DNA of 64,000 nt from an uncultured Bilophila sp. (GCA_910585945.1 CAJUHZ010000003.1:4240-68239); one strand, 5' to 3'. Positions 650-57,560 are shown, numbered from the stretch's first letter. Notes: generated by a model from the sequence alone, not told the origin. Numbers and translations are program-made.

Positions 650-1921
650 ATGTCAGCCATTCGAAAGAGCCTGCTGCAACTCATGTTTTCGGGATCCTGC
701 ATGCGCCGGTGGAACGACAAGCTCCGCCCGGTGGAGCTGTACGAAATCGACAAGCAGGCGCACAAGATGATTGTGGCCTGGATGCTCACGCTGCTGAACA
801 GCCGGGAGCCGGACGCCGCCAGGGATATCGATCTCCAATATGAGGTGGTGGAGGGCGGCCTTTTCGATTACCTCTACCGGCTGGTCATCACCGACATCAA
901 GCCGCCCGTATTCTATAAAATCTGTGAAAACAGGCAGGACCGCGCCAAGCTTACGGAATGGGTGCTCGGCGAACTCCGCCCGGTGGTGGAGCCGCTGAAC
1001 GCCGGCTTCTGGGAGCGCCTCCGCGCCTATCACGGCGAACGCGATCGCTCCGGCCTTGCCGACCGCATCCTGCGCGCCGCGCACCTCTACGCTTCGGGCT
1101 GGGAATACAACGTCATCCGGCCGTTCAACGCCTTTGACGAGGAGGCGGACTACATCGCCGGCTCGTTCGTCTCCCAGCTTGGCGAAATGAAAGATCTCAA
1201 GGGGATGGACGATCTCATGGCCGGCGAAAACTTTTTCAGCGACGGACCTTCGGCCCTGGGGCGTTTCGCGCGGCTGTGCGGTCAGCTCCGCTTTCAGATC
1301 CGTTGGGCGGAAACCTCGCGCATTCCGGAAACTTCCGTGCTTGGTCACATGTTTCTGGTAGGGGGCTACGCCTATTTTTGCAGCCTTGTCGTCGGGGCCT
1401 GCCGGGCGCGCAGCGTCAACAATTTCTTTGCCGGGCTTTTTCATGACTTGCCGGAACTTCTGACGCGCGACATCATCACCCCCGTCAAGCGTTCGGTGGA
1501 TCAACTGCCCGCGCTGATCCGCGCCTACGAGCTTGAGGAACTGGAAACGCGCGTCTTCGGCCCTCTGCAAGCGGCCGGGCTGGACGCTCTGGCGCTCCGG
1601 CTCCGGTATTACCTCGGGCTTCTCGGTGACGTGCAGTCGGAATTTGAGGAGACCGTGCGCGACGCGTCCGGCGTGCGCCGGCTTGTCTCCTTTGAGGATC
1701 TTCACGCCAACGGCAACGCCAATGCCCTTGATCCCAAGGACGGGCGGCTGCTCAAGGCGTGCGACAGTCTGGCCGCCTTCATGGAGGCGCACGCCTCCAT
1801 CCGCAATGGCGTGTCTTCCACCGGCCTGTACGAGGCATTGACCCGCATCCGCGCCAGCTTCCGCCAGCAACCGCCTTTGGGCGCGCTTTCGCTCGCCACG
1901 CTGCTCGCGGATTTTGATTAG
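650..1921 (+). CDS. HD-domain metal-dependent phosphohydrolase family protein
   Basis: ORF 590..1921. The ATG at 650 is preceded by GGAGGG. H...HD...D signature present (QAHKM; GLFHDLPELLTRDI). Good coding GC3 pattern. Confidence 0.75.
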   Translation: MSAIRKSLLQLMFSGSCMRRWNDKLRPVELYEIDKQAHKMIVAWMLTLLNSREPDAARDIDLQYEVVEGGLFDYLYRLVITDIKPPVFYKICENRQDRAKLTEWVLGELRPVVEPLNAGFWERLRAYHGERDRSGLADRILRAAHLYASGWEYNVIRPFNAFDEEADYIAGSFVSQLGEMKDLKGMDDLMAGENFFSDGPSALGRFARLCGQLRFQIRWAETSRIPETSVLGHMFLVGGYAYFCSLVVGACRARSVNNFFAGLFHDLPELLTRDIITPVKRSVDQLPALIRAYELEELETRVFGPLQAAGLDALALRLRYYLGLLGDVQSEFEETVRDASGVRRLVSFEDLHANGNANALDPKDGRLLKACDSLAAFMEAHASIRNGVSSTGLYEALTRIRASFRQQPPLGALSLATLLADFD

Positions 1922-2069
1922 AAGTCATTTCATGATTCGTATGAAATACTTCTACCGCCAGACGAAAGTCTGGCGCGGCGCGAAAAGCGCCGTGAATGAG
2001 CCAAAAACCACGTTTTTTGGCGAATGATCTTCATAATTCAGCCCAAAGGCTGAATTATGAAATGAGTTC
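1921..2069 (+). repeat. Family-2 multi-hairpin intergenic repeat, copy 2a (strand = orientation of the shared core GTGAnTGAGC..GATC)
   Basis: About 85% identical to 11443..11590. Hairpins: gaagtcatttcat/atgaaatacttc, gccagac-gaaa-gtctggc, ggcgc-gaaaa-gcgcc, core 1992..2029, and ttcataattcagcc-caaa-ggctgaattatgaa. Starts at the last base of the TAG stop of the HD gene. Confidence 0.85.
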
Positions 2070-2092
2070 TGGGGGCAGTCGGACTTTCCCGC

Positions 2093-2248
2093 CTAGTGTC
2101 TAATTGCAAAAATTCTGCGCAGAATTCTGCGCAGAATTTCTGCAGGATCGTTCGCGAAAAAACGTGGTTTTTCGCTCACTCACGGCGGCTACGCCGCCGT
2201 AAAACCCTTACGGGTTTTGTAGTGTCTACTTTTGCAAGTAGACACTAG
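2093..2248 (-). mobile_element. Family-1 MITE-like element, copy 1A (156 bp)
   Basis: Termini are CTAGTGTCTA ... TAGACACTAG. It equals copy 1B plus a 12-bp internal duplication (ctgcgcagaatt). No ORF. Its right terminus contains the uppP stop codon. Confidence 0.85.
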
Positions 2249-3045
2249 CGCAGGAAGATGTAGACCAGCGGCGCGAGCGCCAGGCGGTACCAGGCGAAGG
2301 GGCGCAGGGTCAGTCTGCCCACCAGGGCGATGAAGGCGCGAATGGCCAGCAGGGCAAAAAGAAAGGAAAACACCATGCCGGAGGCGAAAAGCGGCACGTC
2401 TTCGGGGGTGAAGAGCGCCCATGTTTTCAGCAGTTCGTAGCCGGTGGCGCCAATCATGATGGGCACGGCCGCAATGAAGGAATACTCCGCCGCGACGTCG
2501 CGCCGAGCGCCGAGCAGCATCCCTCCCATGATGGTTGACCCCGATCGCGAGAAGCCCGGCCACAGGGCAAGGCACTGGCACAGCCCTATGCCCAGGGCCA
2601 TGCGCGGCGTCACGTCGTCCAGGCTCAGGCACACGGGCGGGCGCGCCGCGCTGCGTTTTTCGATCAGCAGCATGAGAAGCGCGCCCACGGCCAGCGCCGC
2701 CGCCACGCTTGCCGGCGTGAACAGGGTCTTGATATGCGAGCGCAGGAGCAGTCCGGCCGCACAGGCGGGGAGGGTGGTCAGCAGGAGCAGGCCGATGCCC
2801 CGTTTCCCGGCAAGGCCGGAGCGTCCCTTTGGACACAGCAGCCCAAGAAAGCGCTGCCGGTACAGAACCGCCACCGCCAGAATGGAACCGAGCTGAATGG
2901 CCACGCTGAACGTGCTCGCCTTGTCCCCGGTGAAGCCGAGCAGATTCCCGGCAATGACCAGGTGGCCGGTGGAAGAAATGGGGAGGAACTCGGTAAGCCC
3001 CTGCACAGCGCCCATGATGAAGCCGACGGAAAGCCAGGAATCCAT
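2245..3045 (-). CDS. uppP: Undecaprenyl-diphosphate phosphatase
   Basis: 266 aa. N-terminus GAVQGLTEFLPISSTGHLVI is the BacA/UppP signature. Multi-pass membrane protein. Confidence 0.93.
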   Translation of the reverse strand: MDSWLSVGFIMGAVQGLTEFLPISSTGHLVIAGNLLGFTGDKASTFSVAIQLGSILAVAVLYRQRFLGLLCPKGRSGLAGKRGIGLLLLTTLPACAAGLLLRSHIKTLFTPASVAAALAVGALLMLLIEKRSAARPPVCLSLDDVTPRMALGIGLCQCLALWPGFSRSGSTIMGGMLLGARRDVAAEYSFIAAVPIMIGATGYELLKTWALFTPEDVPLFASGMVFSFLFALLAIRAFIALVGRLTLRPFAWYRLALAPLVYIFLR

Positions 3046-9238: not shown

Positions 9239-11443
9239 ATGAGCGGAAGCAACGCCCGCAGCAATGCGATTCAGGCCATCACAAGTTACAAGTCCGAACC
9301 CGCACCTCTCAATTTCGCCGGCGCCAGACCCACCGAAATCTATGGGTGCAACGTGTTCAGCGACAAGGTGATGAAGGAGCGGCTGCCCCGCGTCGTGTAC
9401 CGTTCCCTCCGGGAAACCATCGAACGGGGGCGGCATCTTGATCCTTCCCTCGCGGACATTGTGGCCTCGGCCATGAAGGATTGGGCCATTGAAAAGGGCG
9501 CGACGCACTTCACCCATGTGTTTTACCCCCTGACCGGTCTGTCGGCGGAAAAGCACGACAGCTTTCTCAGCCCTGACGGCAGCGGCGGCGTGATCACCGA
9601 ATTCAGCGGAAAAATGCTCAGCCAGGGCGAGTCGGACGCCTCCAGTTTCCCTTCCGGCGGCTTGCGCAGCACTTTCGAGGCGCGGGGCTACACCGCCTGG
9701 GACGTGACAAGCCCGGCCTATCTCATGGAATACACGAGCGGCATTGTGCTGTGCATCCCCACGGCCTTTCTTTCCTGGACGGGGGTGGCGCTTGACCGCA
9801 AGACCCCGCTTCTGCGTTCCAATCAGGCGCTGAACAGGCAGGCCAGCCGCATCCTGCGTCTTTTCGACAAGAAGACGGATTTGCCCATCGTCTCTTTTGC
9901 CGGGCTGGAGCAGGAATTTTTTCTCATCGATCGCAATTTTGTCTTTGGCCGGCCGGATCTGCTCATTGCCGGGCGCACGCTGTTCGGAGCCAAGCCGGCC
10001 AAGGGGCAGGAGTTCGAGGATCAGTATTATGGCGTGATGCCGCGGCGCGTGCTGAGTTGCCTGAGCGAGACCGAGCTTGAACTGTACAAGCTCGGCATTC
10101 CCGTGCGAACCCGGCATAACGAAGTCGCTCCCAGCCAGTACGAGATCGCGCCGGTGTTCGAGGCGGGCAACCTTGCCATTGACCACAACCAGCTTATGAT
10201 GACGGTGCTGCGCAATGTGTCCAAACGGCACGGCCTGACCTGTCTGCTCCATGAAAAACCGTTCCTCGGCATCAACGGATCCGGCAAGCATCTCAATTAC
10301 TCCATCGGCAACGCCGAAGTGGGGAGCCTGTTCGACCCTGGCGACACGCCGCACGAGAACGCCATGTTTCTCGTTTTTCTGGTGGCGGCCATTCGCGGCC
10401 TGCACAAGTACGGGGGGCTGCTCCGGGCCACGGCCGCGGCGGCGTCCAACGATCACCGGCTGGGCGCCAATGAGGCCCCGCCCGCAATCATGTCCATGTT
10501 CCTTGGCGATCAGCTTGCGGATGTTCTGGAACAGATTCGCATCGGCAAGGTGCACGGTTCCAGGGGCAAACGGCTGATGAACGTCGGCGTGGACACGCTC
10601 CCGCCCCTGCCAGCCGATCCGGGCGATCGCAACCGCACCAGCCCCTTTGCCTTCACCGGCAACCGTTTTGAATTTCGGGCGCTCGGATCGAGCATGCCCG
10701 CCTCGGCCACCCAGGCGGTGCTCAACACCATCATGGCCGATTCGCTTGATTTCGCGGCCACGCGGCTGGAGCGTCTCACCGAGGGTGATCCGGGCAAACG
10801 CAACGCCGCCGTGCATACCCTGATCCAGGAGATTATGGAGGAACACAGCGCCGTCATCTTCAATGGCGACGGCTATTCCGAAGTCTGGCATCAGGAAGCC
10901 GAGCGCCGCGGCCTGCCCAACTACCGCACCACGCCCGAAGCCCTCATGGCCTATACCAGCCCCGACGCCATAGACCTGTACGGGCGGTACAATGTCCTGT
11001 CCCGCACGGAACTCAAGGCGCGGCAGGAAATCTACATCGAGCAGTACTGCAAGACGATCCGCACCGAGGCGAACCTGGTCATCCGCATGGCCCGAACCAT
11101 CGTCTACCCGGCCGGGCTTCGCTATCAGCGCGAACTGGCGGGCGTCTGCCTCGACATGTGCGCCATCAACAAGGAACTGAACCGCCCGAATCGGGAGCCG
11201 GACACGGCCTTGCTGGATCAGGTGGAAAGTCTGCTTGCGGCCTTGCGCAAGGCTGTCGACGGTCTGGAATCCGTGCTGGAAAACGGGGAGTACGCCAACA
11301 GCGTGCAGGAAGCCCATCATTACAGGGTGGAAGTGCTCCCGCGCATGGAGGAGGTTCGCGCTCTGGCCGACAGCCTGGAAACCCTGACCCCCGAAGATCT
11401 CTGGCCCCTGCCCAGTTATCAGGAGATGCTGTTCATCAAGTAG
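9239..11443 (+). CDS. glnN: Glutamine synthetase, type III
   Basis: 734 aa, the typical GSIII length. Contains the [12 protein letters not shown] catalytic motif and [22 protein letters not shown] lies upstream. Confidence 0.9.
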
Positions 11444-11590
11444 AAGTCATTTCATAATTCCCATGAAATGACTTTTCACGCCGGACGGGAGTCTGGCGCG
11501 GCCGAAAAGCGCCGTGAATGAAGCCCAAAAGACGTTTTTTGGCGAATGCTCTTCATCGTTCAGCCCCAGGGCTGGACGATGAAATGAGTT
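11443..11590 (+). repeat. Family-2 multi-hairpin intergenic repeat, copy 2b
   Basis: Same module order as 1921..2069. Starts at the last base of the glnN TAG stop. Core at 11514..11550. Confidence 0.85.
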
Positions 11591-11640
11591 GTAGAAAGGT
11601 GAACTGTGCCCCTGAGGGGAAGAGCAATAAAGGAGGCCGT

Positions 11641-50596: not shown

Positions 50597-50656
50597 AAAA
50601 ACTGTCCGGAACAAGGCGTCTGCCGCACTGCCGCGTCAGACGCTTGCCCGGACAGG
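50597..50656 (-). terminator. Nested hairpin + T-run between pta and ackA
   Basis: On the minus strand: cctgtccgg...(gcgtctg...cagacgc)...ccggacag followed by TTTTT, immediately downstream of the pta stop. Confidence 0.45.
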
Positions 50657-50666
50657 AAAATGGCTT

Positions 50667-52793
50667 CTATTCAAGCGTAATAAGACCCTTTTCCGCCTGC
50701 GCCTGAATCGCCGTAATGGCCACGGTGTTGATGATGTCGGGCACGGTGCAGCCGCGCGAGAGGTCGTTGACCGGGCGGTTCAGTCCCTGCAGAACCGGGC
50801 CGATGGCGATGGCGTCCGCCGCGCGTTGAACCGCCTTGTAAGTGTTGTTGCCCGTGTTCAGATCCGGGAAGATGAAGACAGTGGCCCTGCCCGCCACCGG
50901 GCTTTTCGGAGCCTTTGTCCGCGCGACTTCCGGATCGATCGCCGCATCGTACTGCAAGGGGCCGTCGAGCGCCAGATCCGGCGCGTGTTCCCTGGCAAGT
51001 TTTGTGGCTTCAATGACCACATCCACATCCGCGCCCTTGCCGGACCCGCCGGTGGAGTAGGAAAGCATGGCCACGCGCGGCTCAATGCCAAAGACGCGCG
51101 CGGTGTGCGCCGAACTGACGGCGATATCGGCGAGCTGCGCCGCCGTGGGGTTCGGGTTGACGGCGCAATCGCCGAAGACGAGAACCCGATCCTTCAGGCA
51201 CATCAGGAACACGCTGGAGACGATGGAGGCGTTCGCCTTTGTCTTGATGATTTCAAACGCGGGGCGGATCGTGTGCGCCGTGGTGTTGATGGACCCCGAA
51301 ACCATGCCGTCCGCCGCGTCCTTGTACACCATCATGGTGGCGAAATACGTCGCGTCGGCCATGCGATCCCGTGCGTCGTCCAGGGTGATGCCCTTGCTTT
51401 TGCGCAGCTTGTGGTATTCCTGCACATATTCTTCGTACAGGGGCGATTTTTCAGGCTCCACTATCCGGACCTCCGGCAGCATCAGGCCCATTTCATCGAT
51501 TTTTCGGCGGATGGCCTGCTCGTCGCCAAGCAGGATGATTTCCGCCACCTCGCGCTGGCACAGGGCTTCGGCCGCTTTCAGGATGCGTTCTTCGGCCCCT
51601 TCGGGCAGGACGATGCGCATCCTGTGCCGTCTGGCCTGTTCGAGCAGCTTGAATTCAAACATCATGGGCGTCATGCGGCTGGAACGATGGTTGATGAGGC
51701 GGGGGGCGAGCACGTCCCCGTCCACATTGCGTTCAAACAGGGCAATGGCGGTATTGATCTTGCGGGTGTCGCCGGGAGCGATGGTGATGGTGTTCTGAAT
51801 CCTGGTCAGCGCCTGCAAGGCTTCGTAGGTGTTTTCGGGGACGGACAGGAGCGGCACGGGCGCGCCCGTCCACCCGCACGTCAGGCTGAGAATGGAAGTG
51901 GCCAGGTCCAGGCCGCCCGTCAGAAGGATGCCGGAAACATTGGGGTACGCCGGCGAGAGCCGGGAGGCGAGGGCCGCCAGCACAATGTCGGAACGATCGC
52001 CCGGCGTCACCACCAGAAGGCCGTTTTTGAGGTGATCAAGAAAATGTCCGGCCTGCATGGCGGCGACAACGTAGTCCTGCACGGGAACGTCAAGCGAGTT
52101 TTCCCCATAGATGATCTTGGCGTTCATGCTTTTCTGGATGTTCGCCAGGGTTGGTTTGCCGAGCAGGGGTTCGTCCTCGATCATGTAGATCGGAACAGCC
52201 GGGCAGGAGAATTCGTTGCACAGCACGCTCTTGCACTGTTCGCGTTCCTCGGGCGACAGCGTGACGCGATTGACGAACACGCAACTGACTTCCTGCTGCC
52301 GCGCCGTGAGCAGTTCCATGCTTGTTCTGGCGGAAGCGCGGATTTCGTCGGCGTTTTTGCCGTGCCCGCTGATCACAAGGGCGATGGGCATGTTGAGGTT
52401 GGTGGCGATTTCGGCATTCAGCTCGAACTGGAAGGCGGCGTTCTTGCCCAGGTAGTCTGTGCCCTGGCAGAGCACAAAGTCGTAGTTTGCTTCCAGTTGT
52501 TTGTATTTATGGATGATTTTTTCGATAAGAACAGAGGATTTGCCTTGCGTGATCAGCGCGCGCGCTTCTTCATACACGCAGGCGTAGGTGTCTTCATAGG
52601 GAATTTTGAGGTCGAACTGGCGCAGGATGAGTTCGACGTCATGATCCTGGCGCGCCGTATCCGTGGAATAGATGATGGGATGAAAAAACGCCACACGGTG
52701 AACATGGCGCTTGAGCATCTGCATAAGACCAAGGGTGATGGCGGATTTGCCGCTGTTCGGTTCCGTGGCGGTAATGTACAAGCTGTTCGCCAT
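50667..52793 (-). CDS. pta: Phosphate acetyltransferase (long form with N-terminal DRTGG/AAA-like domain)
   Basis: MANSLYITATEPNSGKSAITLGLMQ N-terminus and a C-terminal PTA_PTB domain. 708 aa. Confidence 0.93.
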   Translation of the reverse strand: MANSLYITATEPNSGKSAITLGLMQMLKRHVHRVAFFHPIIYSTDTARQDHDVELILRQFDLKIPYEDTYACVYEEARALITQGKSSVLIEKIIHKYKQLEANYDFVLCQGTDYLGKNAAFQFELNAEIATNLNMPIALVISGHGKNADEIRASARTSMELLTARQQEVSCVFVNRVTLSPEEREQCKSVLCNEFSCPAVPIYMIEDEPLLGKPTLANIQKSMNAKIIYGENSLDVPVQDYVVAAMQAGHFLDHLKNGLLVVTPGDRSDIVLAALASRLSPAYPNVSGILLTGGLDLATSILSLTCGWTGAPVPLLSVPENTYEALQALTRIQNTITIAPGDTRKINTAIALFERNVDGDVLAPRLINHRSSRMTPMMFEFKLLEQARRHRMRIVLPEGAEERILKAAEALCQREVAEIILLGDEQAIRRKIDEMGLMLPEVRIVEPEKSPLYEEYVQEYHKLRKSKGITLDDARDRMADATYFATMMVYKDAADGMVSGSINTTAHTIRPAFEIIKTKANASIVSSVFLMCLKDRVLVFGDCAVNPNPTAAQLADIAVSSAHTARVFGIEPRVAMLSYSTGGSGKGADVDVVIEATKLAREHAPDLALDGPLQYDAAIDPEVARTKAPKSPVAGRATVFIFPDLNTGNNTYKAVQRAADAIAIGPVLQGLNRPVNDLSRGCTVPDIINTVAITAIQAQAEKGLITLE

Positions 52794-52896
52794 GACGAGA
52801 CTCCGTGATGTGAAGTGGCCCTGCACCCGTGCCGGATACAGGGAAAACGGGGAGAAAGGCAAAAAGCCTTCCTCCCCGCCGCTGTTGCAGGAGAAG

Positions 52897-56861: not shown

Positions 56862-57425
56862 ATGTTTTTTCTTCTGGGCGGCAACGAGAAAAAGACGCGC
56901 AAAGCGCCGGCCAAGGCTGACGGTGTTTCCGAGCGTGTGAAAGAGCTGTTTCTGAGCGGGCGTTTCCCCGTGGTCACGACAGATCGGGTTGAAGGAAAGG
57001 AAATATCCAAGGTGCTCGGCCTGGTGTGCTGCCGCGGCTATGACTCCGAAGAGGCTTTTTTCGGCATGGCTTCCCGCGCGGTGAACAAGGGCGCGCACGC
57101 CATTGTCGGCTATATTGAAAATGTGGCCTTCCACCCCGACGGGAGCAAGTATTTCTCCTGCTACGGCACGGCGGTCATGTTTGAATGGGAGCCGGAGGAA
57201 AAATTCGGGGCGGCCGCGCTGCTTTCCCTGAAGCGTCCCCAGGTCTCCGGCGTTCAGGAAGAAGTCCGGCAGGACTTGTTGCGTGCCGCCTCCATGCGGG
57301 ACGAGAGCGTGCCGCCCCTTCGTCCGGGGATGCGCGTCAGCAAAGTGACGCCGCAAGACGACCTGGGCCTTGATCTTGAGGATTCGCTGGCCGAAGAAAT
57401 CGCCCCCCGCCAACGGCGCGGATAG
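56862..57425 (+). CDS. Hypothetical protein with YbjQ/UPF0145-like core and acidic C-terminal extension
   Basis: ATG follows GAGGAGGG. GAHAIVGYIENVAFHPDGSKYFSCYGTAVMFE resembles the UPF0145 C-terminal pattern. Motif-level evidence only. Confidence 0.5.
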   Translation: MFFLLGGNEKKTRKAPAKADGVSERVKELFLSGRFPVVTTDRVEGKEISKVLGLVCCRGYDSEEAFFGMASRAVNKGAHAIVGYIENVAFHPDGSKYFSCYGTAVMFEWEPEEKFGAAALLSLKRPQVSGVQEEVRQDLLRAASMRDESVPPLRPGMRVSKVTPQDDLGLDLEDSLAEEIAPRQRRG

Positions 57426-57560
57426 AGCAATTTTTCATGAAAAATTGCTCTGGCGGACGCGTATAAGCGGACGCCAGCGCCGTAATGAGCTTGAAAACCA
57501 CGTTTTTTCGCGAACGATCCTGCAAAAATTCTTCGCAGAATTTTTGCAATCAGACACCAG
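57423..57560 (+). repeat. Mosaic repeat (family-2-type left half + family-1-type right half), copy 1D
   Basis: Order: TAG stop, then hairpin gagcaattttt-catg-aaaaattgctc, then ctggcg...cgccag, then core gtaatgagcttgaaaaccacgttttttcgcgaacgatcc, then the 28-bp palindrome tgcaaaaattcttcgcagaatttttgca, then atcagacaccag. Confidence 0.8.

Follow-up and report, generated by a model that had tools for sequence, protein, structure and literature searches.

Three unrelated genes in one stretch of bacterial DNA end in a TAG that is at the same time the first trinucleotide of a repeat, and a fourth gene, uppP, has its stop codon inside the terminus of another repeat. How do genes and repeats come to share these letters: do the repeats insert and bring the stop codon with them, is a hairpin kept at the stop by selection, or are the repeats drawn to stops that already exist? 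The stretch, hereafter the window, is 64,000 nt long (C3:4240-68239) and belongs to a Desulfovibrionaceae genome of 2.95 Mb, in 91 contigs with 60% GC. Close relatives of the window's repeats are carried by Mailhella and by Desulfovibrionaceae gut MAGs. The genes and elements concerned, the latter assigned to families named T1 to T4, are the following.

701..1921, plus strand: HD-domain (YfbR-like) gene (open reading frame and gene calls, PF12917/PF13023)
1921..2069, plus strand: T1 MITE copy, 149 bp (matched 46 times by BLAST over 120 nt or more)
2072..2093, no strand: unique spacer, 22 nt, original HD-uppP intergenic DNA (kept in L021 and L022, both without T2)
2096..2245, minus strand: T2 MITE copy, 150 bp, hairpin (left) end at 2245 (presence or absence between strains)
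2245..3045, minus strand: uppP (BacA) (PF02673)
9239..11443, plus strand: glnN, type III glutamine synthetase, stop TAG at 11441-11443 (GSIII_N, Gln-synt_C)
11443..11591, plus strand: T1 MITE copy (85% identical to consensus, with the TA...TA duplication intact)
56862..57425, plus strand: gene of 187 aa, stop TAG at 57423-57425 (gene calls)
57425..57557, plus strand: hybrid element, T3 left end (GAGCAATTTTTCAT hairpin) joined via a shared core to a T2 right end

All four coincidences of stop and repeat that the initial annotation had reported (the HD gene, glnN, the 56862-57425 gene and uppP) are present in the sequence, and public gene calls, on identical proteins, place the stops of HD/uppP, glnN and the 187-aa gene at the same positions. 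The stop of the HD gene (1919-1921) combines a target TA (1919-1920) with the base that opens the T1 terminal repeat (1921), and is followed by AAGTCATTTCAT; the continuation behind the glnN TAG (11441-11443) is identical. Behind the TAG of the 187-aa gene (57423-57425) stands AGCAATTTTTCAT. On the other strand, the TAG of uppP covers 2247-2245; it is again a target TA completed by the first base of a terminal repeat, that of T2, and falls inside ...GACACTAG. The hairpins at these stops fold as had been claimed, with the UAG paired at the base of a 15-bp stem. The 323-bp gap between HD and uppP does hold two elements, but it is not made of repeats throughout, as first described: the 22-nt unique spacer (2072-2093) separates them. 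The junctions in this gap are TA or TG dinucleotides. Elsewhere in the window, the 720-aa gene at 50667-52826 ends in a TAG followed by aagccattttcc (50655-50669, minus strand), apparently what is left of a decayed T1 left end.

The T1 family measures ~150 bp. Under stricter criteria, 34 copies count as full-length, with 77-100% identity to their consensus, and the genome contains many more in the form of partial copies or solo hairpins. The two ends, GAAGTCATTTCAT (1921-1933 in the HD copy) and ATGAAATGAGTTC (2057-2069), form an inverted repeat of 13 nt in which one position is mismatched. A third copy of this repeat, inverted and placed just within the left end, gives rise to the TTTCAT/ATGAAA hairpin. 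In the HD copy, whose fold has z = -10, it is the first of five hairpins (1919-1953) and includes the stop codon. T1 and T2 have the same five-hairpin layout with different stem sequences, and z values from -9 to -12. Across the families, terminal inverted repeats are 13-18 nt long and the elements, about 150 bp, are multicopy; they are short and non-coding (149-175 bp, no notable open reading frame).

The HD copy is flanked by TA on the left (1919-1920) and by a degenerate TG on the right (2070-2071), the glnN copy by TA on both sides (11441-11442 and 11592-11593). T1 flanking dinucleotides are mostly TA in general. Those that are not often match each other (TT/TT, AG/AG, TG/TG twice, AA/AA), which shows that this is a true 2-bp target duplication. 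A 3-bp duplication of TAG was considered and rejected. Under that model the two terminal repeats would be out of register by one base, and half the copies should have an A in front of AAGTC, where G is essentially invariant. The T1 target is asymmetric, with G following the right-hand TA in 85% of copies and a random base preceding the left-hand TA.

The duplicated TA beside element ends is often found as CA or TG (C-TA-G turned into CCAG or CTGG). Such decay affects 10/34 T1 right ends (e.g. C3:87816 and C2:59728) and more than half of the T4 flanks; where the TA is part of a stop codon, it stays TA. Very-short-patch repair of the Vsr type was considered for this right-end change of TA to CA, as well as for the scarcity of CTAG, and discarded, the genome having no Vsr homologue.

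The T2 family can be linked to a parent element. Its terminal repeat GTGTCTAaTTGCAAAA (consensus ends GTGTCTAmTTGCAAAA) is identical over 16 nt to the ends of an IS630-family insertion sequence. T2-type ends occur at contig ends, ~9 per end, and then run into non-MITE sequence, which corresponds to a multicopy insertion sequence of ~1.1 kb. Examples are C8:97578, C27, C40, C44, C52, C7, C37 and C54; the assembly lacks the interior of the insertion sequence. Many further contigs break off within T1 copies, and the repeats are a main cause of assembly fragmentation. A complete, diverged relative of the parent insertion sequence, ~1.1 kb long, is present in a related genome (L030): its transposase of 357 aa has an IS630-family architecture, HTH_32/23/29 followed by DDE_3 (5.5e-20), and of its ends one differs in the first bases and the other is diverged. 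T2, T4 and the insertion sequence all have flanks of the form C/Y-TA-G, with C or Y before the TA at both ends. A CTAG preference like that of IS630 is thus present in these three, and in T1 on the right side only. Adjacent elements often abut with one TA in common, because the sequence ...C-TA-G... recreates the target.

The T2 copy at 2096-2245, with TA on both flanks (2094-2095 and 2246-2247), is absent from two other assemblies of the same species (L021 and L022), whose flanks are 99.8% identical. There the HD-uppP gap is 171 nt long, and uppP ends at the same position in TAA. The BLAST blocks on either side of the copy overlap by TAG on the empty allele. Between this allele and the predicted pre-insertion sequence there are two base differences within 4 nt of the junction, so it is not a clean ancestor. 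In a position-by-position comparison of the window with L021 (~3.3 kb), six SNPs were counted, three of them (2056, 2090 and 2093) within 40 bp of the T2 junction. Their clustering suggests that the copy was gained or lost via a short recombination tract, or that the junction is unusually mutable.

For T1 the picture is less direct. An autonomous element with T1 terminal repeats was not found, which in so fragmented an assembly is weak evidence. Open reading frames enclosed by two T1 terminal repeats were inspected by eye and are ordinary genes, with nothing transposase-like among them; none of the T1 repeats at contig ends runs into non-MITE sequence; and the T1 copies at 1921-2069 and 11443-11591 have no terminal-repeat link to a transposase in this assembly. 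No empty site was seen for any T1 copy, the HD and glnN copies being present in the other strains examined. We infer that T1 uses the same chemistry as T2, with an autonomous partner that was not found here. Neither T1 nor T2 was found in the 30 nearest species representatives. T1-like copies of 75-90% identity have a patchy distribution among other genera of the family; in one of these, a reading frame open for at least 99 codons terminates at the TAG of such an element.

Repeats rich in hairpins could also belong to the REP/REPIN-like or IS200/IS605-type palindromes, which a Y1 transposase would insert 3' of a short target, here TAG, without duplicating it. The conserved TAG at the foot of the first hairpin recalls the 5' GTAG of the REP palindrome, and the orientation of T1 is fixed relative to TAG. 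REPs, which are linked to RAYT, lack terminal inverted repeats and target duplications, whereas the elements described here have both, 2-bp duplications of non-TA pairs included. Moreover, the T2 terminal repeats are those of a DDE_3 element, and the base before TAG is random rather than conserved. On these grounds a Y1 origin has hardly any probability left, the least of the readings we weighed.

TA-G junctions like those of T1 are shared by T2, T3, T4 and at least two further families. The T3 end reads GAGCAwTTTT... and that of T4 GGGTCAGCCCTCATGAAAA. T1, T2 and T3 have unrelated terminal repeats and a common core of ~45 nt (GCCGTGArTGAGCsAAAAACCACGTTTTTTsGCGAAyGATC), the reverse of most MITE families, in which the ends are conserved and the core is variable. 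Another IS630-type element, at C50:15246-16243, has one end similar to T3; its left end is TA followed by GAGCAATTTG, which T3 matches over the first 9-10 nt only. Its transposase is split over frames (1, then 2, then 1) and is either decayed or subject to programmed frameshifting.

The hybrid element behind the 187-aa gene (57425-57557) is flanked by TA (57423-57424) and CA (57558-57559). At this site, strain L024 (2064-2446) has T3 and T2 one behind the other, both complete; strain L026 (2064-2333) has a T3 with a solo T2 hairpin, and the window and L025 have the product of a core-to-core deletion. The polymorphism between strains is a recombination between the shared cores of neighbouring elements.

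If the elements had brought the stop codons with them, genes without elements should end elsewhere. We compared three genes (HD, uppP and glnN) with orthologues in congeners that have none of these elements. The HD protein ends there at the same residue (...ADFD*), with TAG in G013 and TGA in G005; uppP ends in TAG at the same position in both. In seven element-free congeners, glnN stops at the same codon position, with ...KTAG in 5 and ...KTAA in 2. In addition, a G follows the right-hand duplication in each of the 12 full-length T1 copies located at stops, which implies that the codon before insertion was TAG. The stops being present at the same position without the elements, the latter use existing stops and supply only the third base. 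Of the proposal that elements insert at TA or TAG and donate stop codons, the insertion mechanism therefore stands and the donation was overstated: element-free orthologues stop at the same position, mostly with TAG, an outcome named beforehand in the initial annotation as refuting it.

A stronger form of donation would have the elements create new stops by landing on a TA in the 3' part of a gene, for instance in a TAY tyrosine codon, and so truncate proteins. Any TA joined to the G of an element gives TAG, so this is mechanically possible, and five T1-associated stops are now TAA, the initial base of the terminal repeat having mutated. In the comparison with congeners, nevertheless, all three genes stop at the same residue, the strain with the empty site also stops there, and the invariable G behind at-stop T1 copies speaks against it as well. 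Stop creation is largely refuted for the genes of this finding, and we hold it to be very improbable as a general explanation.

The coincidence extends to the genome. Gene ends were taken from a crude codon-usage gene caller made for this analysis, which predicted 2231 genes with 1218 TGA, 590 TAG and 412 TAA stops. Taking the 15-mer that begins with the stop codon, we found it three or more times in the genome for 50/588 genes ending in TAG, 11/1216 in TGA and 3/412 in TAA. At TAG genes the sequence turns repetitive abruptly, between -4 and 0. Checked over 2.95 Mb, the enrichment of element ends at stop codons, suspected from the window, is far beyond chance and restricted to TAG. By pattern searches, 62 genes have a stop that overlaps a T1-T4 terminus; 16 more involve other families or variants. 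Altogether, ~78 genes are concerned (~3.5% of genes, ~12% of those ending in TAG), with at least six families, all with the TA-G junction.

CTAG occurs only 438 times in 2.95 Mb, and a C stands before 91 TAG stops. Counting both strands, ~4,700 TAG sites lie outside genes and repeats, so that stops make up ~11% of the TAG sites where an insertion is tolerated. The hairpin (left) end of T1 lies exactly on a predicted stop in 28/89 cases (31%, against ~11% expected; p = 2e-7), and among TAG-flanked left ends the share is 51% (p = 3e-13). Stops are thus preferred 3-5-fold over other tolerated TAG sites, and sequence preference alone is insufficient to explain the excess. It probably reflects the survival of harmless insertions, not an active targeting of stops.

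The ends of T1 behave differently at stops: against 28/89 hairpin ends, 0/47 right ends are found there (Fisher p = 2e-6). A part of this asymmetry arises because the target itself is asymmetric, with G after the right-hand TA, and C-TAR stops are scarce (140, against 590 TAG stops). From the target, ~4.6 right-end cases are predicted and 0 seen, a residual mild deficit (p ~0.01). For T2 and T4, either end is found on stops.

This brings us to the second initial proposal, that the position is selected: a hairpin on the stop would be kept for a role in the mRNA, as a barrier to 3'-exonucleases, an aid to termination or a ribosome brake. Such selection could add to an insertion bias instead of replacing it. 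E. coli REPs, to which it can be likened, lie within ~15 nt of stop codons and place a stable extragenic hairpin directly behind the stop, as the elements here do; Liang, Rudd and Deutscher reportedly found in 2015 that a REP hairpin near the stop lowers expression of the upstream gene in E. coli. The 3-5-fold enrichment at stops would agree with selection, as would the exclusive use of the hairpin end by T1 and the very strong folding, with one architecture in T1 and T2 despite their differing stems. Three indirect tests, on hairpin strength, copy divergence and orientation, gave it no support. The first hairpin is slightly less stable in copies at stops, with a median of -15.3 kcal/mol, than in the others (-18.0 kcal/mol; p = 0.02). 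T1 copies at stops are neither older nor better conserved, with a median identity to the consensus of 95.3% against 95.7% elsewhere (p = 0.41), and thus show no sign of differential survival by age. Away from stops, the orientation of T1 copies to neighbouring genes is unbiased, 13:13. The use of both ends by T2 and T4 also argues against selection for the hairpin, and the congeners' HD and glnN genes do without any element.

Nor do the elements resemble terminators. A promoter and terminator scan returned nothing in excess of shuffled sequence: no terminator-like site at the first hairpin, and two weak ones within T2 (2 found, 1.0 expected); a GC-rich stem with a U-run directly downstream of the gene, as in an intrinsic terminator, is not seen. 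In Rfam no family scored above threshold, the best being STnc40 with 28.8 bits against 45. Selection of the hairpin at the stop is, in sum, an unlikely account of its position. From the predicted folds, a role of the elements as structured 3' UTRs is possible.

The repeats are in all likelihood non-autonomous MITEs of the IS630/Tc1-mariner type, which insert at TA with a preference for (C)TAG and whose ends, starting with G, rebuild TAG on stops. A DDE transposase of this type would mobilise them, integrating at TA and duplicating it. With a terminal inverted repeat that begins with G in every family, the junction from flank into element reads TA-G. The preference is for a TA within (C)TAG; in a gene-dense genome of 60% GC where CTAG is very rare, TAG stops represent a large share of usable targets. 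They are also the least harmful ones, as the duplicated TA and the element's G restore an in-frame TAG and leave the protein unchanged. The 2-bp duplication, the short non-coding sequence, the mobility of T2 and the link of its terminal repeats to a transposase are all as expected of IS630-derived MITEs.

The chemistry is well documented in this family. Integration of IS630-family elements takes place at TA, which is duplicated, and occasionally at a site other than TA (PMC2170065); for ISY100 of Synechocystis, 34/39 insertions in vitro occurred at TA and 2/39 at AA/TT (PMC2170065). IS630 of Shigella sonnei is described as preferring the TA in 5'-CTAG-3' (Tenzen & Ohtsubo 1991, as cited in PMC2170065). 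The present elements resemble them in the HTH and DDE_3 domains of the parent transposase, in TA integration, in the 2-bp duplication and in the occasional non-TA site. Unlike them, they have no transposase of their own, the preference of T1 extends to a half-site only (TA-G) and its orientation is fixed, and the terminal repeats start with G, each junction being a stop codon. MITEPsy1 of Pseudomonas syringae, an IS5-related MITE of ~100 bp, inserts at CTAG or YTAA and duplicates its target (PMC3189936). It differs by a 4-bp duplication and an IS5-type parent, against 2 bp and an IS630-type parent here.

Bacterial MITEs that duplicate TA include RUP of pneumococcus, Nezha of cyanobacteria and Correia/NEMIS of Neisseria. 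They are ~100-160 bp long and intergenic in many copies, have terminal inverted repeats and a strong hairpin potential, and are often co-transcribed with the neighbouring gene. By description, the elements here are like them in size, terminal repeats, TA duplication and hairpins. In the MITE reviews covered, stop codons go unmentioned, and with them any systematic overlap such as the one seen here, which concerns ~12% of TAG-ending genes and at least six families. We thus have new families of a well-known kind of element, the IS630-type MITEs, and a result largely expected from known transposon behaviour.

Ordinary transposon chemistry accounts for ~3.5% of the genes in this genome, and ~12% of those ending in TAG, terminating in a mobile element. 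That MITEs can accumulate at gene ends while proteins remain undamaged is the joint effect of their target choice (TA in TAG or CTAG), the rarity of CTAG and the base with which the terminal repeat starts. In the annotation of Desulfovibrionaceae genomes, MITE termini at stop codons are to be expected, and in assembly these MITEs cause breaks, many contigs ending in them. Their insertion has also placed long structured 3' UTRs behind dozens of genes. One may speculate further, with little expectation of being right, that terminal repeats starting with G are an adaptation which makes the TA of a stop a 'safe harbour' from either side, any insertion there restoring TAG, and that the T1 hairpin, present in one orientation, has been co-opted to tune termination or mRNA stability. 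If this joint reading were true, T1 would be a 3'-end module for dozens of genes.
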